DNA from: Caldisericia bacterium
GTDB lineage: Bacteria > Caldisericota > Caldisericia > JAAYUI01
Length of the DNA: 64,000 nucleotides
Direction: 5' to 3'
Assembly (NCBI GenBank): GCA_963674785.1
Contig: OY771555.1
Location: 943,847-1,007,846, forward strand
The notes under the pieces are model-generated. The model saw only the letters and a program-made list of their open reading frames with translations, did not search any database and was not told the DNA's origin. Of the stretch, positions 25,003-40,710 are shown in pieces (the stretch's first letter is position 1; each line of letters starts with the position of its first letter). The position numbers and the translations under genes were made by a program.

Positions 25003-25275
25003 ATGGGTGTGAAGTACATTGTTTTTGATTTGTCAAATGCCACATCTGATGATTATAGATTGATCAAAAAGAGAATAGACAAATTTTATCCGGACAATAT
25101 TCATCCGTTAAATACAACTTATTATGTAGCAACTGACGATTCTTGCAGAGATGTTTTTTTCAATATCGAGGAAGCATTCATGGGTGCTGATTACAAATTA
25201 ATTGTTGGTGTACATGCAGGGAGTTATTCATCAGACAACTTAGATGTTGCTTCTTGGCTGAAAAAGCATAGGTAA
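25003..25275 (+). CDS. Hypothetical protein (90 aa)
   Basis: AGGAGG lies 7 nt before the internal ATG (MGVKYIVFDL...). No motif. Confidence 0.45.
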   Translation: MGVKYIVFDLSNATSDDYRLIKKRIDKFYPDNIHPLNTTYYVATDDSCRDVFFNIEEAFMGADYKLIVGVHAGSYSSDNLDVASWLKKHR

Positions 25276-25296
25276 GCGATTTCTTTTAATAAGTGT

Positions 25297-25989
25297 CTAT
25301 TTTGGGTCGATGTCTTTGACCATATCCAGCTGGACTTTTTGAATCTCCATTAACATTTGCCAGTTGTTTTTTATAAAGCTATCGAGTTTTTCATGTAACA
25401 TTCTTATCTCAAGTTCAGCTTTCAGGTTTATTTTGTAATCGTTTACAGATCTGATTCTATCCCTTTTTTCTTGCCTGTTTTGACTCATCATGATTATTGG
25501 AGCTTGCAGGGCTGCAATACATGAGAGAGCGAGGTTTAACAGTATAAATGGGTATGGATCGAATCTTCCGAAAATCAAGAAAATAGAATTGCTGATAATC
25601 CACAGCAAGATGATGCTACAGAAAATTATTATGAATTTCCAGCTTCCTGCAAATGTTGCCAACTTATCTGAAACCATGTCGGCAAAAGTTCTATTTTCGT
25701 CTATATCCTCATCAATGTTTTCTGAAATGAGACCTTTTTCCTGTATGCTTTCTATTACATCTATGACATCTTTGTTATCACCATCGGTATGTTTTTCTAG
25801 AAGCCCCTTTATGTATTTTGCCCTATATTCATTTAGATCTTCTGCACAAATATAATCATAATCCTCGATGTTGGGGTAATCCTTTTTTATGACATCAAGA
25901 ATTTGAATGCTGACGAAAGATAGAGGGAAGAGCCTCTGCTTTGGTTTTCTTGGGTCACAATTGCATATTATATTCTTTTGTTTTTCCAT
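25297..25989 (-). CDS. DUF1003 family membrane protein
   Basis: FDPYPFILLNLALSCIAALQAPIIMMSQNRQEKRDR matches the DUF1003 signature block. Confidence 0.7.
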   Translation of the reverse strand: MEKQKNIICNCDPRKPKQRLFPLSFVSIQILDVIKKDYPNIEDYDYICAEDLNEYRAKYIKGLLEKHTDGDNKDVIDVIESIQEKGLISENIDEDIDENRTFADMVSDKLATFAGSWKFIIIFCSIILLWIISNSIFLIFGRFDPYPFILLNLALSCIAALQAPIIMMSQNRQEKRDRIRSVNDYKINLKAELEIRMLHEKLDSFIKNNWQMLMEIQKVQLDMVKDIDPK

Positions 25990-26052
25990 TTATACCTCCA
26001 TTTATGTGATCCCCTTATTGTAATTAAGAAACTAGTGCAGTAAAATTATAGT

Positions 26053-26367
26053 ATGAGTCAGTATGAAAGAGTTGTTGACATCGTAAAAGAGCTCAAAAAA
26101 GGTCTCAAGTCAAATGATTTAGATGAAAATCAGTTGGGACATCGATTGAATGAAATTTTGCTCGAACTCGAATCGCAAGATGTGAAAGAAGATAGTCTGA
26201 TGGTTTTTGTCCAGAAAATATTGAAAAATCAGTCTGATATTATTGGAAGAATAGAAAAAATTGAGAGAAGTATCAAATCCAATCGAGACTTGATAGATGA
26301 AGTCAATGAAAGAGCTGATAAATATTCTGAACTACTTCTCTCCTTATTTAAAAAGCAGAACAAATAA
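26053..26367 (+). CDS. Hypothetical coiled-coil protein (104 aa)
   Basis: Charged, heptad-like sequence. No motif. Confidence 0.4.
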   Translation: MSQYERVVDIVKELKKGLKSNDLDENQLGHRLNEILLELESQDVKEDSLMVFVQKILKNQSDIIGRIEKIERSIKSNRDLIDEVNERADKYSELLLSLFKKQNK

Positions 26368-26884
26368 GATAGTGGGTTTTTGAAAGTCTCCCAAGTTTTT
26401 TCTGTTGGCTACTGTTACTCTTCAAAGATCTTTTCAAAATCACTTTAGTCAATCCTCCCCATGTAGGGCTTTTTTTGTCACCCTTCCATTTGGTGATAAG
26501 AGTTTTTCTGTATGCTTCAAATGTTGGTAGGTTTTTGTATGGTGTACAGTTGTGGAAATCATGTTCCTCAAGAACCCAATCCCCCGATTGAATTGATTTG
26601 AATCTTTCCTCTGTTTTGTGTAGTTTGCAGTTTGGGAAACGAGTTTTTCGTTCATCACACAAAGCCTTCAAATAATCAACTGTCCAGAAGTAGTGCATTC
26701 TGCTTTTGAGAAGCCACTTTACAAGTGGATGATTAACATGCGTTGGTTTATATGGTTTATCAATCAACTCAGGATACGCTGTAGACAGAAGCTGTGCAGA
26801 CTCAACAATGATTTTATTCAACCTCAAATCATCCAGGTGTTTTGCACAAATCTTTGGGTTTATGTTTGTTATAAAAAGCTGCAT
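26348..26884 (-). CDS. Hypothetical protein; weak resemblance to the T4 endonuclease V / pyrimidine-dimer glycosylase family
   Basis: The N-terminal MQLFITNINPKICAKHLDDLRLNK...YKPTHVNHP loosely resembles that family. The 3' end overlaps repeat copy B. Confidence 0.35.
   Translation of the reverse strand: MQLFITNINPKICAKHLDDLRLNKIIVESAQLLSTAYPELIDKPYKPTHVNHPLVKWLLKSRMHYFWTVDYLKALCDERKTRFPNCKLHKTEERFKSIQSGDWVLEEHDFHNCTPYKNLPTFEAYRKTLITKWKGDKKSPTWGGLTKVILKRSLKSNSSQQKKLGRLSKTHYLICSAF
26393..26477. repeat. Intergenic repeat element copy B
   Basis: See copy A. Identical 29-mer at 26417..26445; palindrome AAAGATCTTT at 26424..26433. Confidence 0.7.
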
Positions 26885-26939
26885 ATATTAAAAAAACACA
26901 CCTCTTTTTCAAAAGAGGTGTGTTTTTAGACAGTATTTT

Positions 26940-27167
26940 TTACTTGTCCGTAAACGGGATTATTACAGCAATGATACCTATTACGACCTTCGCAACTGCG
27001 TGCCACATTGGCTCAGAGCCTATAGCAAGCGAGGGAATAAGTGCCATTACACCCATAATAACCAAGATGATTCCAACAATGACCAGTGATACCTTAGATA
27101 AACTCACAGAATTACCCCCTTTGTCTCTTGATGTTGTAATTATAGCAAGAAAGCCTGTATGTGTCAA
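26940..27167 (-). CDS. Small two-TM membrane protein (75 aa), paralog 1
   Basis: Shares LVIVGIILVIMG...LIPSLA.G.EP.WHA.AK and ends in IIP.TDK. About 70% identical to 27236..27463. Confidence 0.55.
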   Translation of the reverse strand: MTHTGFLAIITTSRDKGGNSVSLSKVSLVIVGIILVIMGVMALIPSLAIGSEPMWHAVAKVVIGIIAVIIPFTDK

Positions 27168-27235
27168 ACATTGTTGTGTTTGTTACGCTTGATTTAACGC
27201 TGCTTAGCTTACAGAAAACTCTTAGATATGGACAA

Positions 27236-27463
27236 TCATTTATCGGTAAGTGGGATTATGATCACAACAAAACCGATCATGATCTTTGCGATGGCATGCC
27301 ACACTGGTTCAAAACCCAGTGCAAGTGAAGGAATTAGACCCATTATGCCCATTATTACTAAAATGATTCCAACGATAACAAGCGTTACTTTAGGTAAACT
27401 CATAGAATTGCCTTCTTTATTTTTTAGTAGCTTGATTATAGGTTGAAATGCGGGATTTGTCAA
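27236..27463 (-). CDS. Small two-TM membrane protein (75 aa), paralog 2
   Basis: Tandem duplicate of 26940..27167. Confidence 0.55.
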   Translation of the reverse strand: MTNPAFQPIIKLLKNKEGNSMSLPKVTLVIVGIILVIMGIMGLIPSLALGFEPVWHAIAKIMIGFVVIIIPLTDK

Positions 27464-27506
27464 AAATTTATCAGTTAGTTATAATCGATACAAAGGGGTA
27501 ACATCT

Positions 27507-28481
27507 ATGATAAAAAATATGTGGTACGCTGTTTTGGACTCAAAAGAAGTGCCAAAAGGGAAAATAGTTGGTGTCAAAAGATTGGGTCAAAAACTGGCGT
27601 TTTGGAGAAAAAATAACGGGCAGATCGCCTGTATTATTGATAAGTGCTGTCACAGAGGTGCATCGATTAGTAAAGGAAAGATTGTCTCTGAACGTGCTCA
27701 GTGCCCATTTCATGGATTTGAATATGATTCAGATGGAAGGGTGAAGGTGATCCCGGCAAATGGAAGAACAGCTCAAGTTCCAGAAAGATTTAGAGTTGAT
27801 GCCTATCCTGTAAAAGAAAAATATGGATTCATCTGGGTATTTTGGGGAATACCATCCGGTGAACTGCAGGAGATCCCATTCTTTGATGATCTGAAAGAAG
27901 GGTTTTATTATTCTCAGCTAAAAGATAAGTGGAGTGTCGATTACACAAGGTGCATCGAAAACCAGATGGATGTAGTCCATGTTCCCTTTGTCCACTACAA
28001 CACCATTGGCAAATCTGGTAAAACTGTTGTTTATGGCCCAAGGACAAAATGGGACGATAACAAACTGACATGGTATGTCAAGAATGTTGTTGATGATTGC
28101 AAGGTTAAAGCAAAACCAGCAGATGAGATGGGGGATGAAAAAGACCTCTTTTCTTTGGAATTTGTTATGCCAAATATATGGCACAACATAATTGCTGATA
28201 AAGTCAGAGTCTTTGCTGCATTTGCTCCGATTGATGATGAAAACACAATGATCTATCTGCGTTTCTATCAGTCATTCATGCCTATATGGGGTTTAAGGCA
28301 CATAGTAGGATTTTTCGGAAGGATTTCCAGCAAAATCATCCTCAGACAAGACAAAAGAGTTGTTGTCACTCAACTACCAAAAAAAAGCTTTATGAAAATG
28401 GACGAAAAGCTCATTCCAGGTGACAGACCCATTGCCGAGTTCAGAAGAAAAAGGGATGAGATGATAAAAGAGAATGAATAG
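27507..28481 (+). CDS. Rieske [2Fe-2S] non-heme iron oxygenase-like protein
   Basis: Rieske CCHRGASISKGKIVSERAQCPFHG (CxH-x17-CxxH). A downstream DVVHVPFVH could supply mononuclear-iron His ligands. Confidence 0.8.
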   Translation: MIKNMWYAVLDSKEVPKGKIVGVKRLGQKLAFWRKNNGQIACIIDKCCHRGASISKGKIVSERAQCPFHGFEYDSDGRVKVIPANGRTAQVPERFRVDAYPVKEKYGFIWVFWGIPSGELQEIPFFDDLKEGFYYSQLKDKWSVDYTRCIENQMDVVHVPFVHYNTIGKSGKTVVYGPRTKWDDNKLTWYVKNVVDDCKVKAKPADEMGDEKDLFSLEFVMPNIWHNIIADKVRVFAAFAPIDDENTMIYLRFYQSFMPIWGLRHIVGFFGRISSKIILRQDKRVVVTQLPKKSFMKMDEKLIPGDRPIAEFRRKRDEMIKENE

Positions 28482-28603
28482 ATAATTCAAATCCTTAAAA
28501 AGGTGACAGTTAATGATATTGTGGAGGGATTGTAAATCTAGTTTGAGCAAAACTTTGTAATATTTGACTCCCAGATACTTTCTCCAGGTTCAGCGAATAT
28601 TTA

Positions 28604-29536
28604 TTAGTTATTTTTTATTTTCGATATTAACTTGTCTACAAGCAATGGATCATCTGACATTAAGGCTACAATATTTGATAAGCTCAGACAAAATTCTTTG
28701 ACCTGATTCTTATTGACATTATGCCATATTGGAAGAATAAGATTTTCATCACTATCAATATTTTTTGCGAAAATTGATTCGAATTCTGCTTCTCCCCAGC
28801 CTTTGTTGTTGAGGAAATTTGGTGAAAGAACCAAAATACAATACTTGGTTTCTCTTAAGCCTTTTTCAATGCTTTTCCTTAGATTATCTCCAACTCCAAG
28901 CGAGAAGTCATCGTACCATACTGGGCAAAACCTCTGGGTTAGTTTTAATGCTAAATCGCTTACCAAGACCTCTTTGTCACGAGAGTCGTGAGATATAAAA
29001 GCAAGCGGACTTCGATCTTTTGTTGTTGCATCCAAGTAGTTTTTGTCTCTGATAACTGGGTATAAACCTGCCTTTTGGCCTAATTCTAAAAGAAAGTCTC
29101 TTTTGTTTTTTTCAATATATTTCTCAACATAGATGAACACTCTTTTGTTAAATTGGGTATCAGATAGTTTTTGATGATCACCAAATCCTTGATGGCCAGA
29201 AAGTACATCAAAACCACCATCGGGAGAGTTTAATTCCAGAGGCTTTTCTAGTCCAATCCCCTCTACTCTAATCTTTTTTCTTCTAGAAATATCATCTTTT
29301 CCCAAATCACATTTTTGCACATAATCTGTTTTGTATATTAGGTCGATGTACTCAGCATAGTGTGGGGTTTCGGGTATATATGACTTAACTAGTCTTGTAT
29401 TATTATTTATATCGAAACACACTTTTAAAATTGCTGAGGGCAAAGGATTTTTGTTGTTGTCATTGAAGTTGAGTATTAATCCTTGGGTAAAAAAATTGCT
29501 TAAATCTCTTTCAAACAAATCTTTAACAGTATTCAT
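28604..29536 (-). CDS. TIR-domain protein (unknown N-terminal domain plus C-terminal TIR)
   Basis: FISHDSRDKEV...VWYDDFSLGVGDNL...ILVLSPNFLNNKGWGEAEFE is a canonical bacterial TIR pattern. Confidence 0.75.
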   Translation of the reverse strand: MNTVKDLFERDLSNFFTQGLILNFNDNNKNPLPSAILKVCFDINNNTRLVKSYIPETPHYAEYIDLIYKTDYVQKCDLGKDDISRRKKIRVEGIGLEKPLELNSPDGGFDVLSGHQGFGDHQKLSDTQFNKRVFIYVEKYIEKNKRDFLLELGQKAGLYPVIRDKNYLDATTKDRSPLAFISHDSRDKEVLVSDLALKLTQRFCPVWYDDFSLGVGDNLRKSIEKGLRETKYCILVLSPNFLNNKGWGEAEFESIFAKNIDSDENLILPIWHNVNKNQVKEFCLSLSNIVALMSDDPLLVDKLISKIKNN

Positions 29537-29559
29537 GCTCCTCCAATATCAATCAAGTA

Positions 29560-30897
29560 TTACTCCCTAATCTTCCCCAGAAGTTTTGGAATATCTTGAT
29601 ATTCTTCCACCCACAAAACATTCAAACCCAGCTCATTAAAGTCCTGGGTTTCGAGGTTTTTGGAAATCTCAAAGACCTCTCCTGAAATGTCCGCGGAGTT
29701 TTTGTCTTTCATGATGAGATAATGTTTCTTTTCGTGGTTGATGTTTTTCCTGTTTGAAACATCAAGAAGTCTTCTGAGGTTTGGGTCTGTCAGACTGAGA
29801 CCAAGGAAAAGACAGGTGTTTTGGCTGTATTTGATGAGCTGAATGATGTTTGACCAGCTATAAACATCCATTGTTTTGTTGTGATATGAGTCCTCGGAAA
29901 AAACAAGTTCTGTATCTTCTGGAATCTCACCTGTTCGAGGAAGGTACCCGTGAACATGATAGATAGGGAGTTCATTCGGGTTGAAACGTACTCCATCATT
30001 GTAGATTGGTTTGAAATCAACCCTCAATTTTTGAAGCTCCTCCTCAATTAAGCCATCAAAATTGAAAGTGATTATTGAATCAAGTGAACAACCGTTTCTC
30101 CTGCTTGGTTTTGAGAGCATCGCAATCTCTCTGATGAGGTCACATGTGCCGTTACCACCCTTATATAGTGCAGCTCGAAGCTCCTCATTGAAAAAACTAC
30201 CGAAATGGTTTTTAAGACTTTTGCCAAGGATGATTGGGGATTGGTTGTAATAGCTCAGGAAATCAGAGGCTTTTATTGGATTTTCTATGTTTAGGGCAAG
30301 TTGAGAGATCATCCGGTCGAGAAGGTCTTCTATCAGGTTGTTCCAGGTGGGAATTCCTGCGCTAACAGAAACCCCAGCTCCACATACAAGCGACAAAGCA
30401 CCATCATGGAAGGCATCTTGAAGATTTTCAATATATAGGTCATTGATGTTGTCTGGTCTTTTGATGAGTATTTCAGGTGGTGGACTTGCTTGTTCTCCAC
30501 TTTCGAGTTTGCTTGCAAATTTGGCGAATGTTTCAAGCTGTTTATCAAAGTTTTCAGATAGGTCGATATAGACATTTGAAAACATCATCGGTGGAATCTC
30601 TGACATATCGATTTTATCAAACGTCAGAACATAAAGCTTCCTTGAATCAAATGTTCCGCCGAAATAATTGAGATATGTCAACCATACCTCTTTTGTGTTC
30701 ATGTGCATTGTCTCGGCACTCAGAACAAGAAGCACCATCTCTGCTTTTTCATAAACATCAAGAATCTCAGATGGTGTTTCCTCGTCTGGGTTTACATCAG
30801 AGACCTTAAAAACAGTATGCCCAAAGGCCTGGAGTTTTTCGGCTACTTGGTCAACCCTGGCTTCGTCCTTGTGACCGTATTCAATGAATATATTCAT
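29560..30897 (-). CDS. TIR-like N-terminal domain fused to a SIR2-like (SIR2_2 type) domain
   Basis: N-terminus IFIEYGHKDEARV...MVLLVLSAET is TIR-like. SIR2_2 blocks are LVCGAGVSVSAGIPTWNNL, ITFNFDGLIEE and HVHGY. Confidence 0.7.
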   Translation of the reverse strand: MNIFIEYGHKDEARVDQVAEKLQAFGHTVFKVSDVNPDEETPSEILDVYEKAEMVLLVLSAETMHMNTKEVWLTYLNYFGGTFDSRKLYVLTFDKIDMSEIPPMMFSNVYIDLSENFDKQLETFAKFASKLESGEQASPPPEILIKRPDNINDLYIENLQDAFHDGALSLVCGAGVSVSAGIPTWNNLIEDLLDRMISQLALNIENPIKASDFLSYYNQSPIILGKSLKNHFGSFFNEELRAALYKGGNGTCDLIREIAMLSKPSRRNGCSLDSIITFNFDGLIEEELQKLRVDFKPIYNDGVRFNPNELPIYHVHGYLPRTGEIPEDTELVFSEDSYHNKTMDVYSWSNIIQLIKYSQNTCLFLGLSLTDPNLRRLLDVSNRKNINHEKKHYLIMKDKNSADISGEVFEISKNLETQDFNELGLNVLWVEEYQDIPKLLGKIRE

Positions 30898-30910
30898 GTA
30901 TTCATTTTAG

Positions 30911-31762
30911 TCACTTGAACATACAATCGCAAATGTCAGCGATTGGTTTATATCCAATTTTTTGGTAGATGCTATTTGATGTGGGGTTTGCAAGGTCTGT
31001 AAAGAGTGTACAGAATTTTTTCCCACTTTTTAAGATTTCTTTTGATAGTTCTGAGACAACCGCTGTTGCGTAACCTTTTCCTCTTTCATCAGGCGGAGTA
31101 TAAACTGATGCGACACATTCGCTGTTTGGTGTTGGTCTTGTCCTTGCTGCCATTGAGACCGGTTTATCCTTTTCCCAGAGATAAAAGAAACCTGACTTTA
31201 TCTTGTCTTCAAGGTGATTTGAATCATCGGGAGTATTGTTACTATTTTCTCCAAAGCAATCGATCATGAATTTCTTTGTCCAATCAAGACACAGGTCAAA
31301 GTCATCCATGGTTGCGACACGAAAATTCCCTTCTGGATAATCACGTTTTGCAACCTCTGTGAGTTTGAATATTCTCATACTCATGACAATTTTTAATTTT
31401 CTGCCAGTTTTTTCACAGTAGTTTTTTGCAAAAGTTTCTGCAATATTTTTTTCTGCAATCACTCCTGGGACATACCAGTTTGAGTTTCCGATATTTTTTG
31501 TGAGTGTTTCAACTGCTTCTAATGAATTATTTCCACATGCAATGATCTGGATTTTAAATGGTGGAGTCATCATAACAACAAGCTCAATTCCTGAACTTGA
31601 AGATACTGTTGCCAGTAAAGGTTTTGTTCCGTAGTAGTTGGGATCAGCTTTAAGAAGTTCTGCAATTCCAAGCATCAAGCCGTTTTCCGCTTCACTTGCA
31701 AGAAGGATTTCTCTAGTAGTATCTAAAAAATTATTTATATTATTGTATTCTTTATACTCCAT
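30911..31762 (-). CDS. GNAT family N-acetyltransferase with an N-terminal extension
   Basis: Acetyl-CoA motif ERGKGYATAVV plus the C-terminal TLFTDLANPTSNSIYQKIGY. Confidence 0.65.
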   Translation of the reverse strand: MEYKEYNNINNFLDTTREILLASEAENGLMLGIAELLKADPNYYGTKPLLATVSSSSGIELVVMMTPPFKIQIIACGNNSLEAVETLTKNIGNSNWYVPGVIAEKNIAETFAKNYCEKTGRKLKIVMSMRIFKLTEVAKRDYPEGNFRVATMDDFDLCLDWTKKFMIDCFGENSNNTPDDSNHLEDKIKSGFFYLWEKDKPVSMAARTRPTPNSECVASVYTPPDERGKGYATAVVSELSKEILKSGKKFCTLFTDLANPTSNSIYQKIGYKPIADICDCMFK

Positions 31763-31765
31763 GTT

Positions 31766-32719
31766 TTATTCCACCTTTTCTACATTGTCTGCCGGGAATA
31801 AGTCTGGGGTAGACAGATATCTCTCACCTGTATCATACATGAAACAAACTATTGTTTTTCCAACAAATTCTGGTCTTTCTGAAATCTGTCCCGCAACCCA
31901 AACAGATGCTCCTGATGTTGGCCCAACAAGAATACCCTCTTTTCTTGCAATTAATCTTGCTGTTTCAAAGGCGACATCATTTTCTACAAGGATGATTTCA
32001 TCAAGATTTTGTCTTGATCTTTTGAAGTTGTCTGTAATAAATCCTGGGCCAATACCGATAAGTTTGTGAGGAGCTTGAGCTCCACCTGAATAGACTGGAC
32101 TTGCTGCAGGCTCAAAACCAATGATTTTTATGTTTGGGTTTTTGCTTTTGAGAAATCTTGATAGACCATCAAATGTCCCGCTTGTTCCAAGACCAATTAT
32201 TGCAACATCGATGTTGCCGTTAGTTTGTTCCCAAATCTCTGGTCCTGTTGTTGTTTCGTGTGCTTTTCCGTTGTTTTGGTTTCCGTGTTGATTGAGGAAA
32301 AATGTCGTATTTGGATTTTTATCACAATACTTTATAGCTCTTTCTCTTGCACCTTTTGTGTGTTCAGCAGCGGGGGTAAGCATTACTTTTGCGCCATATG
32401 CACAAAGGATTTGCTGCCTCTCGACACTGCAAAGCTCACTCATGAAGATACGAGTTTTATAATCTAGCATCGCTCCCAAGCTTGCAATCGCAATTGCAGT
32501 ATTACCACTGCTTGCCTCAACAACCTCTGTTTCTGAGGTTATTTTGCCCTCAGCCATCACTGTTTTTATCATTGATCTGACAGCTCTATCCTTTACTGAT
32601 GTTGGATTGCAGCGTTCCATTTTAGCAAGGATTCTTGCTTTAGGATCAACAAAAACTTTTGTCAGTTCAAAAAGTGGAGTATTTCCAATCAAGTCACATG
32701 CATCAGTAATGATATTCAT
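31766..32719 (-). CDS. cysK: Cysteine synthase / O-acetylserine sulfhydrylase (PLP-dependent)
   Basis: PLP-lysine block PTSVKDRA, SSGNTAIA, and G-rich GTSGT loop. Full-length colinear architecture. Confidence 0.8.
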   Translation of the reverse strand: MNIITDACDLIGNTPLFELTKVFVDPKARILAKMERCNPTSVKDRAVRSMIKTVMAEGKITSETEVVEASSGNTAIAIASLGAMLDYKTRIFMSELCSVERQQILCAYGAKVMLTPAAEHTKGARERAIKYCDKNPNTTFFLNQHGNQNNGKAHETTTGPEIWEQTNGNIDVAIIGLGTSGTFDGLSRFLKSKNPNIKIIGFEPAASPVYSGGAQAPHKLIGIGPGFITDNFKRSRQNLDEIILVENDVAFETARLIARKEGILVGPTSGASVWVAGQISERPEFVGKTIVCFMYDTGERYLSTPDLFPADNVEKVE

Positions 32720-32833
32720 AAAGCTCTCCTTATTTTTTTGTAATTGGGAGAAGAGTCTAATGATAAAATGTCAAAATGCAAGCGGAATGGGCTGGTTTAC
32801 AAATTCATATATTTTTATATACTTCTTCCTGGT

Positions 32834-33455
32834 ATGGAATCCTCTGACAATTTGATAAAACTAGCTTTTTCAATGCAATCAAACAAGGGCGTTTATGCTC
32901 TCCTTCTTGGTTCTGGGATTTCAATTTCGGCAGGTATCCCAACAGGTTGGGGAGTTGTTTGCGACCTTATAAATAAACTCGCAAGACTGCATGGTGAAAA
33001 CCCTGGCGAGAAGTGTTGGGAATGGTACGAAAAAAAGTTTGATAAACCAGCAGACTATTCAGATCTCCTTGATTTCCTGGCAGATACTCCCACCCAAAGG
33101 GCGAAACTTCTAACATCATATTTTGAGCCAAATGATGAAGAAAAAAAGTCAGGTAAAAAACTTCCAACACCTGCACATAAGGCGATTGCAAAGCTAATTG
33201 AACAGAAGTTTGTGAAGGTCATTATTACAACAAATTTCGATAGACTTCTTGAAAAAGCACTTTCTGATTTGAATATCAATCCAAGAGTTGTTTCGTCTTC
33301 AGATGATATTGAAGGTCTACCATCTCTTGTTCATATGGAAAGACCACTAATAATCAAAGTAAACGGTGATTATCTTGATTCAAGAATAAAAAATACTCCA
33401 GAGGAGCTTGAAAACTATACTTCTGAAATGAACCAACTTTTGACTGAGATTTTTT
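32834..33455 (+). repeat. Duplicated segment (copy 1): 5' ~620 nt of the SIR2-STAND gene plus ~40 nt upstream
   Basis: Compared with 36329..36950, all differences after codon 7 are synonymous. The last ~130 nt are 100% identical. Confidence 0.8.
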
Positions 33456-36274
33456 CAGAGTATGGATTGATAATATCTGGTTGGTCAGCAAGATATGATT
33501 CAGCCTTAATTGAGTGTTATGAGCAGGCTAAAAACACTGATTTTATAACGTGTTGGATAGATCCATTTGATTTATCAGAGCCAGCTTTGAAGCTTTTGTC
33601 ATTGAGAAATGGAAGATTTATCAAAGAAAAAGCAGATATCTTTTTCCCAGAACTTGCAAAAAAGTTACGCTGCATTTATGAAAGATCAGATAAACTAGAT
33701 GTTCCGAACAACCTTCCTGAGGGTCTTTCATCTTTTATTGGAAGAGAAAAAGAGATTTCTGAAATCCTTGAGCTTGAAAAAAAACATAGGATGATAACTC
33801 TTGTTGGACCTGCAGGGGTTGGTAAAACAAGATTGGCAATTGAGATCGCAAAAAGACTTTCAAGCTCAAGCTATTCTAAAATATGGTTTATCAATCTTTC
33901 ACTCGTTTCTGAAAAAATCCAAGTATATCAAATAATCTTTGAGGCATTGGGTATTCGATTAGATTATACTGAGTCTTCTATTGATGCTATCATCAATGCA
34001 ATAAAAAACACAAAGTGTTTGATAATTTTCGATAACTGTGAACAGGTAATAAACATTGTCTCACAGATTGCAAAAAAGCTTTTAAATGAAACAAAACAGC
34101 TAAAGATAATTGCAACAAGCAGGGAGACTCTAAACATTGAGATCGAAGCTAGGTGGTACACTCCTGTTATGGAATTCCCAGAACGATCTGATGAGGAATT
34201 CTCAAAAATTCTTGAATACTCAAGTATAAAGCTATTTTATGAACGAGCAAAAACTGTATCATCAGATTTTGTCTTAGATGAAAACAATATCCGAAGTGTT
34301 GTCAATATTTGTATCAAACTTGATGGCTTACCGCTTGCAATCGAACTTGCATCAGCAAGAACAAAAGTTCTTTCTGTAAAACAAATTGAGAAAAAACTTG
34401 CAAGAAGATTCAAGCTATTAACAAAAAGTTTTAGTAGAGTCCCGGATAGACAAAAAACTCTTAAAGGTGCAATCGATTGGAGTTTTGATTTGTTATCTGA
34501 TGATGAAAAAAAACTTCTTACTAGAGTATCTGTTTTTACTGGAGGATTTTCTCTGGAATCATCAGTTGCTGTTTTTACGGGAAGAATTTATAAGGGTGAT
34601 ACTGGGACAGATAAATATTTTGAATTTGATGAATTTGAAGTACTTGATCTGATACAGCAATTAGTATCAAAATCTTTGATCATTTCAAAAAAATCAGTTG
34701 ATGGGAATATCAGGTATAGCCTTCTCGAATCAATAAAGAAATATGGAATGGAAAAGCTAGAAACCTTTGGTGAAATGGTCTTGATCCATGACAGGCATTC
34801 CCGATGGTTTGATTTTTGGATAAACTCACACACAGAGAAACTCAGAACCAGTGAACAATTCCTTTGGCAAAAGAAGATTGAATTTGAAAATGAAAACATC
34901 TTAGCGGCTCTGGATTACTTGTATGAGACAAAACGATTGACTAGATGTGCAAGGATAATAAGTGGAGTTTCAATTTTCTGGGATTTGGTGTATTACAATG
35001 AACTTGGATACACTTGGACAAAAAAGGTTATTGAAACAGATCTTATTGATGATGATGGACTTCTTGGTTTGATGTATAATTGTAATGGGGCTTTTTTGTT
35101 CAACTTAGGAAGGGACAATGAGGCAATTAGTTCTCATGAAAAAGCATTAAAGCTATTTGAAAAAACAGGAAATAAGGAAAGAATTTCGATGGTTTCACAA
35201 AATCTTGCACTTTCCTATAAAAAAGTTGGAAAGATTTCAAAATGCGTTCCTTTGTTAGAAAAAGCAATAAAGGCAAGTATTGATGCAGAAAATGATTATT
35301 TCTTAGCTGTAAACAGAATGAATCTTGGCGATGTATATTTTTTCCAAGGTGACTTTGAGAAATCAATGGAACAATTTGAAAAGTCTATATCGATTTTTAG
35401 GAAGCTTTCAGATCAAAGAATGATTTTAATGGTTCAGAATAATTTTGCATCTGCATACTATAACCTTCTAAATCTACCGAAGATGAAAGAAGTTCTTGAT
35501 GAGATGTACCCGCTTGCTAAGTCAATCAGTTATACTGAATATGTTGATGTTTTGAGGCTGTTGTGTGATTATTATCTCATATTGGGAGAGTATGATAAAG
35601 CAACGAATCAATATAAACTGATGGAAAAGCTGAGAAAAGAAAATCCAACACAATACATTATCGAGCCGATCGAATATTCTTACTCTGCAATAATGATGGA
35701 AAAGGGTAATTTCGATGATGCATATGAAATATATGTAAATGCTGGACTTTTTGATATGACAAAAGATTTCAGTATCAAAGAACTAATGCTGATGCTCTAT
35801 TATTCAATTTCTATGAAGGATAAAAAGTTAATAGGTGAAATTATTGAAAAAATATCAACCGATAAGAAAATAATCCCATCAAAACTAGATTTAATAAGGT
35901 TTGTTGGTTACAAAGCGACCTTTAATTATCTAGATGGAAAACTGTCTGAAGCGCTAGTTACCCTAAAAAAAGTAATCTTTGACTTTTATAAAATTGAGGC
36001 ATATTTTGATCTTATCAAAATACTCGAGATGACGTCAATTGTTTTTTGTGAATTGGGTGATTTTTCGGTTTCTGCAATGATTCTTGGAAAAATGAAACAA
36101 TTAAGATCTTTTTTCGGAACCCCACTTTCTCCAGCGAGGAAACCAGATATTGAAAAGTTAAAAGCTGATTTGAACCATGAAATCGGAGATGATTTTGAAA
36201 AAATGATGGTCAAAGGTTCAAAGCTTACGACTGAGGAAATAATTAAAGTTGTAGGTTGTGATTTAGTGAACTGA
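32834..36274 (+). CDS. SIR2-like (SIR2_2) + NB-ARC-type STAND ATPase + TPR repeats; NLR/Avs-like defence protein, paralog 1
   Basis: SIR2_2 blocks LLGSGISISAGIPTGWG and VIITTNFDRLLE. Walker A GPAGVGKT, Walker B LIIFDNCE, NB-ARC GLPLAIELA, then a long TPR-like C-terminus. Start is at the Met that matches paralog 2. Confidence 0.8.
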   Translation: MESSDNLIKLAFSMQSNKGVYALLLGSGISISAGIPTGWGVVCDLINKLARLHGENPGEKCWEWYEKKFDKPADYSDLLDFLADTPTQRAKLLTSYFEPNDEEKKSGKKLPTPAHKAIAKLIEQKFVKVIITTNFDRLLEKALSDLNINPRVVSSSDDIEGLPSLVHMERPLIIKVNGDYLDSRIKNTPEELENYTSEMNQLLTEIFSEYGLIISGWSARYDSALIECYEQAKNTDFITCWIDPFDLSEPALKLLSLRNGRFIKEKADIFFPELAKKLRCIYERSDKLDVPNNLPEGLSSFIGREKEISEILELEKKHRMITLVGPAGVGKTRLAIEIAKRLSSSSYSKIWFINLSLVSEKIQVYQIIFEALGIRLDYTESSIDAIINAIKNTKCLIIFDNCEQVINIVSQIAKKLLNETKQLKIIATSRETLNIEIEARWYTPVMEFPERSDEEFSKILEYSSIKLFYERAKTVSSDFVLDENNIRSVVNICIKLDGLPLAIELASARTKVLSVKQIEKKLARRFKLLTKSFSRVPDRQKTLKGAIDWSFDLLSDDEKKLLTRVSVFTGGFSLESSVAVFTGRIYKGDTGTDKYFEFDEFEVLDLIQQLVSKSLIISKKSVDGNIRYSLLESIKKYGMEKLETFGEMVLIHDRHSRWFDFWINSHTEKLRTSEQFLWQKKIEFENENILAALDYLYETKRLTRCARIISGVSIFWDLVYYNELGYTWTKKVIETDLIDDDGLLGLMYNCNGAFLFNLGRDNEAISSHEKALKLFEKTGNKERISMVSQNLALSYKKVGKISKCVPLLEKAIKASIDAENDYFLAVNRMNLGDVYFFQGDFEKSMEQFEKSISIFRKLSDQRMILMVQNNFASAYYNLLNLPKMKEVLDEMYPLAKSISYTEYVDVLRLLCDYYLILGEYDKATNQYKLMEKLRKENPTQYIIEPIEYSYSAIMMEKGNFDDAYEIYVNAGLFDMTKDFSIKELMLMLYYSISMKDKKLIGEIIEKISTDKKIIPSKLDLIRFVGYKATFNYLDGKLSEALVTLKKVIFDFYKIEAYFDLIKILEMTSIVFCELGDFSVSAMILGKMKQLRSFFGTPLSPARKPDIEKLKADLNHEIGDDFEKMMVKGSKLTTEEIIKVVGCDLVN

Positions 36275-36328
36275 TAAAAAACCAAGTCAGTTTACTTTTT
36301 TCTACATTTTCATATACTCTCACCTAGT

Positions 36329-36950
36329 ATGGAAGTCTCTGATAATACTATAAAACTAGCATTTTCTATGCAATCGAATAAGGGTGTGTATGCTCTTCTG
36401 CTTGGTTCAGGAATATCAATATCAGCAGGCATCCCAACAGGTTGGGGAGTTGTTTGTGACCTTATAAATAAACTCGCAAGGCTGCATGGTGAAAACCCTG
36501 GCGAGAAATGCTGGGAATGGTACGAAAAAAAGTTTGACAAACCCGCAGACTATTCAGACCTCCTTGATTTCTTGGCAGATACTCCCACCCAAAGAGCAAA
36601 ACTACTGACTTCATACTTTGAGCCAAATGATGAAGAAAAAAAGTCAGGCAAAAAACTTCCAACACCTGCACACAAGGCGATTGCAAAACTTATTGAGCAG
36701 AAGTTTGTGAAGGTCATTATTACAACAAATTTCGATAGGCTTCTTGAAAAAGCACTTTCTGATTTAAATATCAATCCAAGAGTTGTTTCGTCTTCAGATG
36801 ATATTGAAGGTCTGCCATCTCTTGTTCATATGGAAAGACCACTAATAATCAAAGTAAACGGTGATTATCTTGATTCAAGAATAAAAAATACTCCAGAGGA
36901 GCTTGAAAACTATACTTCTGAAATGAACCAACTTTTGACTGAGATTTTTT
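36329..36950 (+). repeat. Duplicated segment (copy 2)
   Basis: See 32834..33455. Confidence 0.8.
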
Positions 36951-39820
36951 TAAAGTATGGGTTGATACTCTCTGGATGGTCAGGCAAATATGATACTGCA
37001 CTCATTGAGTGTTATAAAAATGGTATCAATAAAGAGTTTTCAACCTATTGGGTTGACCCTGGTGGATTATCAGACTCTGCAAGTGAACTTTTGTCTTTGA
37101 GGGATGGAAAGTTTGTAAAAGCAACATCAGATGAGTTTTTCTCTGATCTTGAACATAAGCTCATGAATAATGAGGTTCAAGAGACAAAAGAGACCTATGA
37201 GGTTCGAAATAATCTACCTGAAGACCTTTCATCATTCATTGGACGAAAAAAAGAGATTGATGAGATTAAATCTATTCTTGAAGATAAAAGACTGATCACA
37301 ATCCTTGGTATCGGTGGTTCTGGAAAAACAAGACTTGTAATTGAGGCCGCAAAAAGAAACACTGATAAATTCACAGATGGTATCTGTTTTGTTAGTCTTT
37401 CTGATATTTCTGAAAAAATCCAGTTGGTTCAATCTATTTCTACATTTTTGAATGTTCAAGGTGACTCCGAAAAATCTCCGACTGAATTGATAATTGATCA
37501 TATTTCAGATAAAAAAATGCTTTTAATCCTTGATAGTTGTGAGCTTGTTTCATCTTCGCTTGCAAAGATTTCAGAAAGGTTTTTGGAGAATTGCCCAAAC
37601 TTGAGAATTATTGCTACAACAACTGAATCACTCGAGATCAAAGGTGAAGAGGTTTGGAGAATTCCATCACTTGTAGTTCCACAATCGAATTCAATTAAAC
37701 TTGATGATTTTGAAAAATTTTCAGCAGTAAAATTATTTGTTGAAAGAGCAAGATCTGTTGCAACTGATTTTACCCTTTCAGAAGAAAATTCGGACGCAGT
37801 TTGTGATATTGTGAGAAGACTCGATGGTTTACCGCTAGCAATTGAACTTGCTGCTGCAAGGGTGAAGGTTCTTTCACCAGACCAGATAAACCAAAAATTG
37901 AATAAAAGATTTAAGCTTTTGACAAAGGGTTCAAGAGATGCAACCGATAGACAGAAAACCCTTCGGAAAACAATTGATTGGAGTTATGATCTCCTCTCTT
38001 CTGATGAGAGAACATTGCTCAATAGGATGTCAGTTTTTTCTGAAGGATTCACATTAGAGTCTTCAACCGCTATTGCCACAGGTGACTTTGAGTTCAAGTT
38101 AGATGACAAAGTACTCGCTGATTCAATTTCTGAAGATGCTGAAACTTTTGATGATGATTTTTGTGAATTTGATGAGTTTGAAATCCTTGACCTTATTGAT
38201 GGGCTTCACTCAAAATCACTTATTGTTACAAATAAAACTGCTAAAGGTGAAACAAGATATTATCTCCTAAACACGATAAGAGAATATGCAAAAGAAAAGC
38301 TTGTTGAGTCAGGCGAGTATGAATTTATAAGAAAAAGATACCTTAGGTGGTTCGCCACATGGGTAAACACCAATAGAAATAATCTGAGAGGTAAAGACCA
38401 AGCACTTTGGTTAGCAAGGTTTGAGTCAGAAAATAAAAATGTTCTTTCTGCAATTGATTTTGCCTTCGAGTCAAATCAAGATGGATACTTGATAATCCTG
38501 ACTTCCTCGATGTGCATTTTTTGGAATGTTATGGGTTATCATAGATTGGGTTTGGAAAAGACAAAGCAGGCGATTGAAAGAATCAATATCAAATCAAAAA
38601 CAGCGGGTTCGCTTTGTTTGAATTCAGGTGTGTTTGCACATTGGCTTGGCGATTTTGATGAGGCTATCAGGGTTACAAATAAATCAATTGGAATACTTGA
38701 AGAAATTGATGCTCAGGATTCATTACTTTTTTCCTATCAGAATTTGGCAATCTATTATCAGGGGAATGGAAATATAGATAAGAGCTTTGAGTTATATGAA
38801 AAAACAATAAAGCTCAGCACAGAATTGAAACAATACCATATGCTTGCGACAAGTCAGATGAATCTTGGTTTGAGTTATTTTGATGTTGGAAGATATGATG
38901 ATGCCTTGAGAGAATTGAAGACCTCTCTTGCTTCATTTGAAAAGATCTCCGACTATAGGATGATTTGTTGGACAAATAGATTAATATCATCGATCCATAT
39001 TGACAGATTGAATCTCAAAGAAGCTGAAAGGTTTATTTCCGAGGCTATGAAATATGGTGGAAAGTCTGGGGTTAACCTCGAGATAATTCTAACTTTGAGG
39101 AAAAAGGCTCAGTTTAATGTTCTGATTGGGAAATATGATGAAGCGATTGAATGCAATAATAAAATAAAACAGCTTTCAAAAAAACAGCTTCAAGATCTTG
39201 GAATGGATTATTATTATGATAGCTCAATCGAGATTTACATGTCGATGAATGATATGGAAAAAACAAAGTATTATTTAGAAAAACTTGGTCATCTGAAAGA
39301 AGATGAAAAGTTTGGTTACAGAGAAAATGATATTAGCATATTGCTTACACTTGCCAAATATTACATTTTCAATCGAGAGCTAAATAACGCAAAACTTATT
39401 TTCGATAAAATTGATGAAAGAAAAAAAGTTCTTACAAAATCGTCTTTCATAAATAGATATATGTTATATAAGGGGATGTATCTCCATTTGAAAAATGATT
39501 TTATGGAATCGACAGAATGCCTGCTAGGTGTTTTAAAAAACCATATGGAGTCGAAATCCATGTTACAGGTAATTGTTTCGCTGGAATTTCTATCCATGAG
39601 CTTTGGAAATATGAAGAAATATAAGGAAGCATCGCTTATTATCGGCAAAGCAATTCAATTGAGAAATAAGTTTGGTGTCCCAAATGACCCCCTTATTAAA
39701 CCTTACATTGATGAAATTATTGCCAACTTAAGCGAGTTTTCCGGAGCAACTTTTGAAAAATATGGAGATCGCGGAGCAAACATGTCCCTTGATGAGATTA
39801 TCGAGTTTATATCTCAATAA
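36329..39820 (+). CDS. SIR2-like + NB-ARC-type STAND ATPase + TPR repeats; paralog 2
   Basis: Same architecture. Walker A GIGGSGKT, Walker B LLILDSCE, GLPLAIELA. N-terminal residues 8-206 are identical in amino acids to paralog 1. Confidence 0.8.
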   Translation: MEVSDNTIKLAFSMQSNKGVYALLLGSGISISAGIPTGWGVVCDLINKLARLHGENPGEKCWEWYEKKFDKPADYSDLLDFLADTPTQRAKLLTSYFEPNDEEKKSGKKLPTPAHKAIAKLIEQKFVKVIITTNFDRLLEKALSDLNINPRVVSSSDDIEGLPSLVHMERPLIIKVNGDYLDSRIKNTPEELENYTSEMNQLLTEIFLKYGLILSGWSGKYDTALIECYKNGINKEFSTYWVDPGGLSDSASELLSLRDGKFVKATSDEFFSDLEHKLMNNEVQETKETYEVRNNLPEDLSSFIGRKKEIDEIKSILEDKRLITILGIGGSGKTRLVIEAAKRNTDKFTDGICFVSLSDISEKIQLVQSISTFLNVQGDSEKSPTELIIDHISDKKMLLILDSCELVSSSLAKISERFLENCPNLRIIATTTESLEIKGEEVWRIPSLVVPQSNSIKLDDFEKFSAVKLFVERARSVATDFTLSEENSDAVCDIVRRLDGLPLAIELAAARVKVLSPDQINQKLNKRFKLLTKGSRDATDRQKTLRKTIDWSYDLLSSDERTLLNRMSVFSEGFTLESSTAIATGDFEFKLDDKVLADSISEDAETFDDDFCEFDEFEILDLIDGLHSKSLIVTNKTAKGETRYYLLNTIREYAKEKLVESGEYEFIRKRYLRWFATWVNTNRNNLRGKDQALWLARFESENKNVLSAIDFAFESNQDGYLIILTSSMCIFWNVMGYHRLGLEKTKQAIERINIKSKTAGSLCLNSGVFAHWLGDFDEAIRVTNKSIGILEEIDAQDSLLFSYQNLAIYYQGNGNIDKSFELYEKTIKLSTELKQYHMLATSQMNLGLSYFDVGRYDDALRELKTSLASFEKISDYRMICWTNRLISSIHIDRLNLKEAERFISEAMKYGGKSGVNLEIILTLRKKAQFNVLIGKYDEAIECNNKIKQLSKKQLQDLGMDYYYDSSIEIYMSMNDMEKTKYYLEKLGHLKEDEKFGYRENDISILLTLAKYYIFNRELNNAKLIFDKIDERKKVLTKSSFINRYMLYKGMYLHLKNDFMESTECLLGVLKNHMESKSMLQVIVSLEFLSMSFGNMKKYKEASLIIGKAIQLRNKFGVPNDPLIKPYIDEIIANLSEFSGATFEKYGDRGANMSLDEIIEFISQ

Positions 39821-40710
39821 TTGATTCTGGAAATCTTTTTAAATCTGACCTGTGATATTACAACTCCTGAAAGAACAACAACAATTCCAACCATATTAAA
39901 AATTGTCAGTTTTTCACCAAGCACTATGAATGCCGCAATTGCAGTAAAAATCGGGATTGTATTTGTGAAAAGGTTTGCGGTTGACATCCCAAGTTCCTGG
40001 ATTGCAGAAATGAAGAAGATATAGGCAAGTGATGAGCCGAGAACCGCCAGTAGAAGAAATGGCATGATGGTACCTGAAACAAATCCAATTTTAAGAATAT
40101 GTCTCAGATCAGTTACCAGGAATAGTGGAATGAACATTATTGAACCGATAAGATTCTGCCAGAAGAGGATTGAAAAAACATTGTATCGATCCTTGAGTTT
40201 ATATATGAGTACGGTGTAGATAATTGCTGAAAGAATAGCCAAGAATAAAAGAAAAACACCAAATGGGTGTGCTGAAAATGAAAGATCATTCTTCATGACT
40301 ACCATCAAAACCCCGAAAAATGAGATTATCATTCCCAAAACAAAAAATCTTGTGAGTTTTTCTTTGAAGAAAATATGTCCCGCAATTGGCGTAAAAAGCG
40401 GAATCATTGCGATGATTACTGCTGTGACAGTTGTGGAGACATACATCAATCCGTAGTTTTCGCAGATGAAATATAAAAATGGTTGGAAGAGTGACAAAAG
40501 CACGAACTGCCAAAAATCTTCTTTTCGAATCTTTTGCAGTTGTTTTAGAAACAGATTGAATATAAACATGAAAAAAACTGAAATGATGAGTCTTACAGTT
40601 ATGATTGTGATCGGATTGTAGAACTCAAGAATCTGTTTTGTCCAAATAAAGGTGAGTCCCCAGAAAACCATTGCCAGAGAAAGATTTATGTATACAAGAG
40701 CTTTTTTCAT
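39814..40710 (-). CDS. DMT superfamily (EamA-like) transporter, ~10 TM
   Basis: Two EamA-like hydrophobic halves. Its 3' end overlaps the STAND gene stop by 7 nt, convergently. Confidence 0.65.
   Translation of the reverse strand: MKKALVYINLSLAMVFWGLTFIWTKQILEFYNPITIITVRLIISVFFMFIFNLFLKQLQKIRKEDFWQFVLLSLFQPFLYFICENYGLMYVSTTVTAVIIAMIPLFTPIAGHIFFKEKLTRFFVLGMIISFFGVLMVVMKNDLSFSAHPFGVFLLFLAILSAIIYTVLIYKLKDRYNVFSILFWQNLIGSIMFIPLFLVTDLRHILKIGFVSGTIMPFLLLAVLGSSLAYIFFISAIQELGMSTANLFTNTIPIFTAIAAFIVLGEKLTIFNMVGIVVVLSGVVISQVRFKKISRINY

Follow-up and report, generated by a model that had tools for sequence, protein, structure and literature searches.

RESULTS

Two tandem SIR2-STAND genes in a variable defence island

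Two tandem genes, 3.5 kb apart, lie within the window (the whole 64 000 nt stretch of DNA analysed): gene A (P0121; 32834..36274, + strand; 1146 aa) and gene B (P0124; 36329..39820, + strand; 1163 aa), each with a SIR2 – NB-ARC (STAND) – TPR architecture according to its open reading frame, translation and Pfam matches. The N-terminal domain matches Pfam SIR2_2, residues 23–263 align to the Sir2 structures 8in8/8jkz, and the NAD-pocket motifs GSGISISAGIPTGW, TTNFD and KVNGDY can be read in the sequence. The central STAND NTPase is matched by NB-ARC at 1.7e-10 and 3.1e-10 in Pfam, and the translations of the pair contain Walker A (GPAGVGKTR / GIGGSGKTR) and Walker B (LIIFDNCE / LLILDSCE) motifs, while the C-terminal repeat sensor gives Pfam matches to TPR_12, TPR_2 and TPR_MalT. 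Among PADLOC profiles only PDC-S65, pAgo-associated SIR2 and generic SIR2 matched, and no curated Avs/AVAST profile did so at E<=1e-3; the SIR2 domains are nearest to the PDC-S65 and pAgo-associated SIR2 lineages. The pair belongs to a variable defence island whose gene content differs in each relative, with TIR and TIR-SIR2 genes as neighbours. This context is only suggestive of NAD+ depletion and protection against phage, and the NADase or antiphage activity of A and B is a prediction.

Homology between the two genes begins 37–39 nt 5' of each ATG, at a sigma-70-like site. That of gene A (32796..32823, + strand) consists of TTTACA, a 16-nt spacer and TATACT, 10 nt from the ATG; that of gene B (36291..36318, + strand), which sits in the 54-nt spacer between the genes, has the same geometry with TTTACT as the first hexamer. 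Both are putative promoters on the strength of the consensus match. The hexamers are kept between A and B, and the spacer between them is about 62% identical, with indels. No terminator was found in the 54-nt intergenic spacer and no Shine–Dalgarno sequence ahead of gene A. A sequence-only reading of this DNA had described the 40 nt or so upstream as similar, as they are, but had taken them for a duplicated translation-initiation region; they hold a promoter-like site and no ribosome-binding site.

Near-identity of the first 207 codons

Positions 32834..33455 (A) and 36329..36950 (B) align without gaps. Within the first 621 nt there are 42 nucleotide differences, spread over 39 codons, of which 37 are synonymous and two nonsynonymous (S3V and L7T, together accounting for 5 nt), so that codons 1–207 are 93% identical in nucleotides and 99% in amino acids. 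The sequence-only reading had put the differences at about 50, with 14 of the first 27 codons affected (we count 12), but its central observation holds: after the two N-terminal substitutions, residues 8–207 are identical and every remaining difference is silent. Counted formally by the Nei–Gojobori method, codons 8–207 give Sd=36 of S=134.5 and Nd=0 of N=465.5, with dS=0.33; were there no selection, the chance of all 36 changes being synonymous would be about 0.224^36, or roughly 4e-24.

The silent differences thin out towards the 3' end, as had been noted from the letters alone. In the 5' to 3' direction pS is 0.65 (codons 8–34), 0.33 (35–100), 0.19 (101–162) and 0 (163–207), and a logistic gradient fits better than a constant rate (2*deltaLogL=22.6). 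A model of two steps, changing after codon 123 (pS 0.42 before, 0.05 after), fits about as well as the gradient. Codons 35–123 (A 32936..33202, B 36431..36697, + strand) carry 19 synonymous and no nonsynonymous changes (dS 0.43), and codons 124–207 (A 33203..33455, B 36698..36950, + strand) carry three synonymous changes (dS 0.06); over codons 35–207 together dS is 0.23 and pS 0.19, and outside them synonymous sites are saturated. The identical run at the 3' end, previously estimated at about 130 nt, is a perfect 136 nt (gene nt 487–622; window 33320–33455 / 36815–36950), the longest in the block; further perfect runs measure 47, 41 and 32 nt.

The 3' edge is sharp: the first mismatch falls at gene nt 623 and is followed by 9 mismatches in 37 nt. 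Past the block nucleotide identity is about 51%, and amino acid identity is 51% over codons 208–285 (approximately A 33456..33691, + strand), which make up the rest of the SIR2 fold and lie outside the presumed tract, 47% over 286–560 and 32% from 561 to the end, lower than the 65% and then 50% first suggested. The edge does not delimit a SIR2 sub-domain, as had been proposed, but lies at residue 207 inside the SIR2 Rossmann fold, and the match to the PDC-S65 profile continues to about residue 284; homogenization extends over only some 18% of the gene. No RNA family or long antisense ORF was found under either block.

That strain mixture or a wrongly resolved collapsed repeat in the assembly assigned variants to two copies is scarcely credible. 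Nothing speaks for it directly beyond the source being an assembled 2.23-Mb contig, and against it the differences obey codon structure perfectly, reach indels in the promoter spacer and, at the 5' end, attain a pS of 0.65, far above strain-level variation; moreover, the two ORFs are full-length and intact, and their 3' parts are distinct.

The NAD-binding motif

Codons 8–34 (A 32855..32935, B 36350..36430, + strand) encode the Gly-rich NAD-binding motif LAFSMQSNKGVYALLLGSGISISAGIPTGW. Synonymous sites here are saturated between A and B (the pS of 0.65 given above), with no amino acid change at all. All family members carry the motif in near-invariant form, and two unrelated members from different genomes (L008 and L014) likewise differ at Sd 16 and Nd 0 in the motif segment. 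In this segment pS is 0.71 between A and B, no lower than the 0.53 between B and an ortholog. The dense silent differences of codons 8–34 thus need not involve conversion, the motif being invariant family-wide at saturated dS. The shared promoter and the first seven codons (ME.SDN.) are specific to A and B and absent from the ortholog O21 (see below), which suggests one exchange of the 5' end as well; if so, the saturated pS of codons 8–34, beside 0.33 next door, is incompletely explained.

The same segment bears on the proposal that silent changes were selected in themselves, because they would reduce RecA-mediated deletion between the direct repeats, which would remove the sensor of gene A. 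RecA-dependent deletion between direct repeats is established and would be mechanistically plausible between 621-nt repeats 3.5 kb apart; the differences are indeed all silent and most concentrated towards one end of the repeat. However, homologous recombination usually needs a few tens of base pairs, which the persisting perfect runs of 136, 47, 41 and 32 nt exceed. The densest differences lie in the family-invariant motif, and the same dense silent pattern occurs there between unrelated members, where such selection cannot act. Each silent site would, in addition, have only a tiny selection coefficient, and we regard this proposal as very unlikely.

Orthologs and phylogeny

Three loci in related genomes (L019, L020 and L021) each hold a single SIR2-STAND gene adjoining EamA. 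L019 and L020 are syntenic, and their housekeeping neighbours are 70–73% identical in amino acids. The single-copy genes of L019 and L021 (hereafter O19 and O21) are syntenic orthologs of gene B. Gene A is absent from all three syntenic loci and, among the relatives sampled, occurs in this genome only.

Over codons 35–207, in which A and B encode 100% identical protein, either gene is 74–75% identical in amino acids to O19 or O21, with pS 0.81–0.84. A rooted quartet of this segment joins A with B in 1000 of 1000 bootstraps (AB|OX). Past the block the topology changes to BO|AX, with bootstrap values of 962/1000 for codons 208–285, 905/1000 for 561–760 and 793/1000 for 290–760; the NOD region (290–560) gives no resolved topology when taken alone. 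The sensor halves of A and B are as distant from one another as from homologs in other genomes. Gene conversion between A and B is strongly supported by this phylogenetic incongruence. Outgroup states at the 42 differing sites are B-like at 15 and A-like at 9, which is not a significant difference, and synonymous sites are saturated against the orthologs.

Selection on the SIR2 core

The orthologs O19 and O21 differ from one another over codons 35–207 by 51 synonymous and 16 nonsynonymous changes (omega 0.062). The SIR2 core is thus not unusually constrained, and the suggestion that extreme constraint or obligate co-assembly had kept the two proteins identical is not supported, given this ordinary single-copy dN/dS, which the sequence-only reading had itself named as counter-evidence, and the 25% by which the proteins of A and B depart from those orthologs.

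Between A and B the corresponding counts are 22 synonymous and 0 nonsynonymous (34:0 with codons 14–34 added), where the ortholog rate leads one to expect about 5.8 nonsynonymous changes (Poisson P=0.003). The 22:0 ratio differs from the 51:16 of O19/O21 (Fisher p=0.006) and from pooled family pairs (p=0.001), and ordinary purifying selection fits the block only if omega is below about 0.04. This nonsynonymous deficit is modest, and somewhat stronger constraint than in the orthologs is therefore possible.

DISCUSSION

Probable gene conversion followed by purifying selection

We consider it likely that the near-identity of codons 1–207 arose by gene conversion between old paralogs, followed by ordinary purifying selection: one gene would have received these codons as a copy from its neighbour, and only synonymous differences would be left because purifying selection then cleared the amino-acid-changing mutations. 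Our working model is that A and B are anciently diverged paralogs in tandem, between which non-reciprocal homologous recombination copied the 5' part, roughly codons 35–207. Conversion probably took place at least twice, an older event accounting for the dS of about 0.4 in codons 35–123 and a recent one, the youngest, leaving codons 124–207 almost identical, the 136-nt perfect run included; we infer the number and order of these events, and the outgroup comparison favours neither direction of transfer significantly. The 3' limit would be a recombination endpoint within the Rossmann fold and not a domain boundary, and to its right a nucleotide identity of about 51% may represent too high a divergence for later events to extend the tract. 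Point mutations would have accrued after conversion, those changing amino acids being purged by selection on the predicted NADase core, while the promoter-like hexamers may have been held by function as their spacer drifted. The result, we presume, is a pair of NLR-like proteins that have effector core and promoter geometry in common and differ in their NOD/TPR sensors.

Of the explanations offered with the sequence-only reading, the import of one copy followed by a recent conversion tract came closest, and its conversion part is borne out by the incongruence. We give the import part a small though real chance, in the form of an allelic replacement in which one block was exchanged by recombination with a diverged strain and later conversion equalized the last 136–250 nt or so; the silent differences would then represent between-strain divergence and not post-conversion mutation. 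A step-like profile, which fits as well as the gradient, agrees with such a replacement, the island is variable, and intragenic between-strain mosaics are found in this SIR2 family: L002 and L011, in which the 5' 690 nt or so are 96–100% identical, the rest 83–92% identical and the flanks unrelated, are an independent mosaic. But an earlier homogenization of A and B is still needed, since the block is specific to the pair and 25% different from the orthologs, so that conversion has to be assumed even with import. Neither a candidate donor nor a second genome with both genes, nor any strain-level relative, was found among about 5.8 billion proteins, GTDB representatives and metagenomes, and the dN of zero is explained no better.

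The nonsynonymous deficit raises the further question of whether, besides conversion, there was added selection that kept the two SIR2 cores identical as proteins. Mixed oligomers or filaments, a shared regulator or common phage inhibitor, or a dual-context constraint, whereby a substitution soon copied to the other gene must work with both NOD/TPR contexts, would each push omega below that of single-copy orthologs, and the 22:0 against 51:16 comparison (p=0.006) does show a nonsynonymous deficit. In EfAvs5, neither filaments nor NADase activity are obtained without SIR2–SIR2 contacts within and between dimers (PMC11897194), which makes SIR2 surfaces assembly interfaces in this class of proteins. 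Yet the upper bound on omega in A and B, about 0.04, lies near the ortholog value of 0.062, itself derived from just 16 events. EfAvs5 assembly also requires NBD–WHD contacts (PMC11897194), in a region where A and B share only about 47% identity, so that mixed assemblies do not follow. On balance we think added selection of this kind doubtful. It is a still bolder and somewhat less likely proposition that A and B are a working pair whose SIR2 identity is actively selected, whether for mixed assemblies or as one effector module that answers to two sensors and faces a common regulator or phage inhibitor; conversion would then serve to keep the shared module in step. If true, such a pairing would make A and B the prokaryotic equivalent of paired or co-evolving NLRs and of TLR1/TLR6.

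Comparison with known systems

With conversion and ordinary purifying selection as the preferred reading, A and B, as a pair of bacterial NLR-like defence genes, are a clean, well-bounded and ordinary case of partial concerted evolution, opening no long-standing question and holding little surprise for the specialist. The lesson is that an identical protein with many silent differences can come from two ordinary causes side by side, a recent conversion tract and an adjoining motif invariant throughout the family.

The mammalian TLR1/TLR6 pair is a described case of partial gene conversion between tandem paralogs of innate immunity; it recurred there in nine species independently, and the tract is C-terminal (Kruithof et al., 2007; PMC2077338). 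As there, the genes studied here are tandem immune-receptor paralogs whose converted region is closer between paralogs than between orthologs, and it is the signalling or effector end that is converted while the ligand-sensing part diverges. Unlike TLR1/TLR6, A and B are prokaryotic, are known from one genome only and have an N-terminal, promoter-proximal tract. Concerted evolution of duplicated bacterial genes is exemplified by tufA/tufB in enterobacteria. In cases of that type, as in A and B, RecA-type conversion leaves paralogs of the same genome near-identical, with few and mostly synonymous differences, but usually whole core-pathway genes are involved, whereas only the 5' 18% or so is homogenized here and the rest is 32–51% identical in amino acids. 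Long-lasting concerted evolution of bacterial duplicates has been catalogued (PMC6053082).

In architecture the pair resembles the Avs5-type protein EfAvs5 (PMC11897194), in that a NOD/STAND NTPase lies between an N-terminal SIR2 domain and a C-terminal sensor; a TN(F/Y) pocket motif occurs in both, and N180 of EfAvs5 and the KVNGDY motif of A and B place Asn where most SIR2s carry His. In contrast to EfAvs5, A and B match no PADLOC Avs/AVAST profile at E<=1e-3 and have an NB-ARC NTPase and a TPR sensor. The SIR2 domains match the PADLOC profile of PDC-S65 at 408–411 bits, and the invariant N-terminal motif is common to both. PDC-S65, however, is a candidate system of single SIR2 proteins of about 580 aa (true members, 579–607 aa); only positions 15–296 of the 592 in its profile align, to residues 3–284 of A and B, in which NB-ARC and TPR replace the C-terminal half.

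Clustered plant NLR (R) genes swap segments through unequal crossing-over or gene conversion, from which mosaic paralogs result, and such exchange often diversifies the LRR sensors. A and B are likewise tandem NLR-type immune genes exchanging segments, but their exchange homogenizes the effector core and leaves the sensors untouched. On this reading the pair illustrates how ordinary homologous recombination can provide a defence island with two sensors for a single effector design, as a parallel to TLR1/TLR6 and to plant NLR clusters.

Gene architecture and genomic context

The tandem genes A (32834..36274, + strand; 1146 aa) and B (36329..39820, + strand; 1163 aa) each encode a protein with SIR2_2, NB-ARC (STAND NTPase) and TPR parts. 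The SIR2 domain of both (residues ~3–284) scores >400 bits against the PADLOC candidate family PDC-S65, and neither protein matched an Avs profile in the PADLOC profile search. The mechanical ORF of gene A begins at a TTG 30 codons 5' of the ATG at 32834 (32744–32833) and crosses a promoter-like site; homology with gene B and the N-terminus of the family support the ATG as the real start.

The window is bacterial in content (sigma-54 regulators, SelA, FabF; ~38% GC), and synteny with MAG GCA_023145025.1 points to a source that is probably a Caldisericia-type bacterium. The neighbourhood of the two genes is defence-island-like, with TIR, TIR-SIR2, GNAT and PLP enzyme genes upstream and EamA downstream. 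A variable defence island lies between SelA/Lcl_C and EamA (23390–40710 in the window, 4862–14501 in L019 and 1–5221 in L021, two loci of related genomes). In the window it contains a 230-aa ORF, a Rieske oxygenase, TIR, TIR-SIR2, GNAT, the PLP enzyme and genes A and B; in L019, a 1188-aa protein kinase-STAND-TPR gene, Lcl_C and one SIR2-STAND gene; and in L021, GNAT lies directly 5' of a lone SIR2-STAND gene. The TIR-domain (310 aa) and TIR+SIR2_2 (445 aa) genes of the window are adjacent (28604–30897, − strand), 2–4 kb upstream of gene A; their SIR2 shares only 25–28% identity with that of A and B and lies outside the converted block discussed below.

Related loci

As the sequence-only reading had proposed, orthologous loci were searched for singletons, and L019, L021 and a third locus, L020, each carry a single SIR2-STAND gene next to EamA. 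Synteny between L019 and the window extends over both flanks, with HhH-GPD, SelA and Lcl_C upstream and EamA plus four small and two large genes downstream; the L019 neighbour proteins are 57–73% aa identical to those of the window, and its SIR2-STAND gene adjoins EamA as gene B does. L020 has the same single gene and the downstream side in common with the window, as well as part of the upstream Lcl_C-like gene; the order in L021 is GNAT, SIR2-STAND, EamA. Compared with these three loci, the window alone has gene A, the PLP enzyme and further genes of the island. The called start of the L019 gene (MQSN…; 9911–10000) is probably too far downstream: the reading frame continues 5' of it through …IIKLAFS, the N-terminus conserved in the family, and before that come an N/Q/T-rich stretch and an in-frame GTG.

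When the 207-aa block was scanned against GTDB representatives, metagenomes and viral contigs, no second copy or near-identical block was found, and the relatives had ≤63% identity. A protein search with residues 1–300 gave none above 55% identity among the matches listed, a search that was not exhaustive owing to its word filter and missed A and B themselves as well as their nearest relatives, P0122 and P0123. Exact-sequence look-up of genes A and B and of the flanking PALP and EamA proteins gave no match. A query with the STAND/TPR half recovered the entries for A and B (P0121 and P0124, on a 2.23-Mb contig) and only two further members of the SIR2-NB-ARC-TPR lineage, P0122, from a MAG labelled Caldisericia bacterium, and P0123.

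Evidence for gene conversion

The first 621 nt of A and B form an ungapped alignment with 42 mismatches, representing 37 synonymous codon differences together with S3V and L7T. The sequence-only reading had overcounted slightly (~50 differences, and 14 rather than 12 of the first 27 codons), but its description otherwise holds: by Nei–Gojobori counting, codons 8–207 have Sd=36 over 134.5 synonymous sites (dS=0.33) and Nd=0 over 465.5 nonsynonymous sites, and pS falls towards the 3' end, from 0.65 (codons 8–34) through 0.33 (35–100) and 0.19 (101–162) to 0 (163–207). The identical final stretch contains the longest perfect run, 136 nt (gene nt 487–622), and the next 37 nt have nine mismatches; past codon 207 the proteins drop to 51, then 47 and then 32% identity from one region to the next, with dS saturated. 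The silent divergence is described about equally well by a logistic gradient and by two steps with a break after codon 123 (pS 0.42, then 0.05); a constant rate fits far worse than either.

The two genes are 100% aa identical over codons 35–207, where they are only 74–75% identical to O19 and O21, the orthologues of gene B in L019 and L021. In the NOD and sensor regions (codons 286–1146), aa identity is 32–47% between A and B, 33–50% between A and the orthologues and 42–54% between B and the orthologues, the sensor half of A being as far from B as from the genes of other genomes. Recent tandem duplication as the whole story is thereby ruled out, since beyond the block A resembles those genes at least as closely as it resembles B. 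Rooted quartets grouped A with B in 1000 of 1000 bootstrap replicates for codons 35–207, whereas B grouped with the orthologues for codons 208–285 (962/1000) and 561–760 (905/1000); no grouping was favoured for codons 290–560 (NOD). This shift is the classic mark of a tract of interlocus gene conversion. The divergence profile suggests at least two conversion events, an older one that would have covered approximately codons 35–123 and a recent one over approximately codons 124–207; of the readings offered earlier, the recent short conversion tract comes closest. Import of one block from another strain, the other part of that proposal, would still need an earlier homogenization of A and B.

The block had also been called a SIR2 sub-domain. 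Alignment with the closest solved structure, the Sir2 superfamily protein 8in8/8jkz, is continuous over residues 23–263, and the 3' end is accordingly placed by this alignment inside the Rossmann fold, just before the conserved strand GL(I/V)xSG(W/Y)S, so that the label does not fit. Two PDC-S65-type SIR2 genes on different metagenome/MAG contigs (L002 8714–10489 and L011 9974–11746) form a recombination mosaic, with 96–100% identity over the 5' ~690 nt, 83–92% over the remainder and a 99% patch at nt 960–1049; their flanks are unrelated, placing the gene in different contexts. Recombination breakpoints inside this domain are therefore not unique to A and B. An N/Q/T-rich low-complexity insertion (…NQLTNQNNTTNQNTNTT…) separates the NOD/winged-helix and TPR parts in L019 (~11800–11930) and, equivalently, L021 (residues ~590–640); it is unequal in length in O19 and O21, short in gene B (residues ~578–600) and absent from gene A.

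Why only silent differences

The NAD-binding loop, LAFSMQSNKGVYALLLGSG.S.SAGIPTGW, is specified by codons 8–34 and is near-invariant in every family member even at ~50% overall identity; the same pattern is seen between the unrelated members in L008 and L014 (Sd 16, Nd 0). At silent sites here the divergence of A from B (pS 0.71) is not below that of B from its orthologues (pS 0.53). Given the invariance of the motif and these silent sites, codons 8–34 need no special explanation, and conversion may never have happened there.

Codons 35–207 are variable in the family, and here A and B show 22 silent and no replacement changes. The most suitable yardstick is the orthologue pair O19 and O21, for which the same codons give Sd 51, Nd 16 and omega 0.062 (0.045–0.10 for other family pairs); scaled to the dS of A and B, this rate predicts ~5.8 replacements against none observed (Poisson P=0.003). 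The silent:replacement ratio differs from that of the orthologues (Fisher p=0.006) and of pooled family pairs (p=0.001), and the 95% upper bound on omega for A and B is ~0.04. Judged from these counts, the deficit of replacements is real but modest, and it could reflect purifying selection that is somewhat stronger, chance together with ascertainment, or the added demand that a shared module work in two contexts. The SIR2 core is clearly free of the extreme constraint suggested earlier; it and the orthologues have diverged by 25% since they separated.

The all-silent pattern had also prompted the idea of selection for nucleotide divergence that would suppress deletion between the repeats; this is disfavoured, as perfect runs of 136, 47, 41 and 32 nt survive. 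A diversity-generating retroelement or other base-specific mutator is ruled out, the differences mixing transitions and transversions at all four bases, and ORF and Rfam scans exclude an overlapping antisense gene or structured RNA (no antisense ORF ≥80 aa under either block; no Rfam match at E≤0.1). No repeats other than the A/B homology were found. Recombination within an aa-identical block can only delete or duplicate, yielding no new protein, which excludes a cassette or phase-variation switch. Co-assembly of A and B, also raised earlier, is possible but unsupported: EfAvs5 assembly requires NBD-WHD contacts besides SIR2 contacts (PMC11897194), and A and B are only ~47% identical in that region. 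We consider it improbable that selection maintains the identity of the shared SIR2 core as such on account of the two proteins acting together.

Upstream region

Homology between A and B begins 37–39 nt before each ATG, coinciding in both copies with a sigma-70-like site (+ strand): TTTACA, a 16-nt spacer and TATACT 10 nt from the ATG for gene A (32796–32823), and TTTACT with TATACT in the same geometry for gene B (36291–36318). Both hexamers are conserved, with just ~62% identity in the spacer between them. Neither gene has a Shine–Dalgarno sequence between TATACT and ATG (32824–32833, 36319–36328), while in O21 an AAGGTGA lies 6 nt 5' of the start codon; translation of A and B may begin on near-leaderless mRNAs. 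The similarity of ~40 nt noticed earlier is borne out in extent, but it is this promoter-like site rather than a ribosome-binding site. No terminator was found between A and B. Confinement of the predicted promoter and the ME.SDN. N-terminus to these two genes hints that their 5' ends may also have been exchanged at some earlier time; given such an exchange, the higher silent divergence of codons 8–34 than of codons 35–123 is not fully explained.

Comparison with known systems

The motif IKVNGD (gene A residues ~173–178, 33350–33367; gene B 36845–36862) has Asn where K-I-H-G-D of 8in8/8jkz has His, a feature common to A, B, O19, O21 and part of the PDC-S65 family, the remaining members having K(V/L)HGDY instead of KVNGDY. 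EfAvs5, which is active, resembles A and B in carrying Asn (N180) at the usual SIR2 His position (PMC11897194), so that KVNGDY is no evidence of inactivity and is ruled out as the mark of a dead enzyme.

We regard genes A and B, a bacterial pair of NLR-like genes, as a further example of a process already known; it is neat and well bounded, but not surprising. The tufA/tufB pair is an example of concerted evolution of bacterial duplicates. Such evolution is well documented (PMC6053082), and the closest analogue of the A/B case is TLR1/TLR6, tandem immune paralogues with partial gene conversion of the signalling half (PMC2077338).
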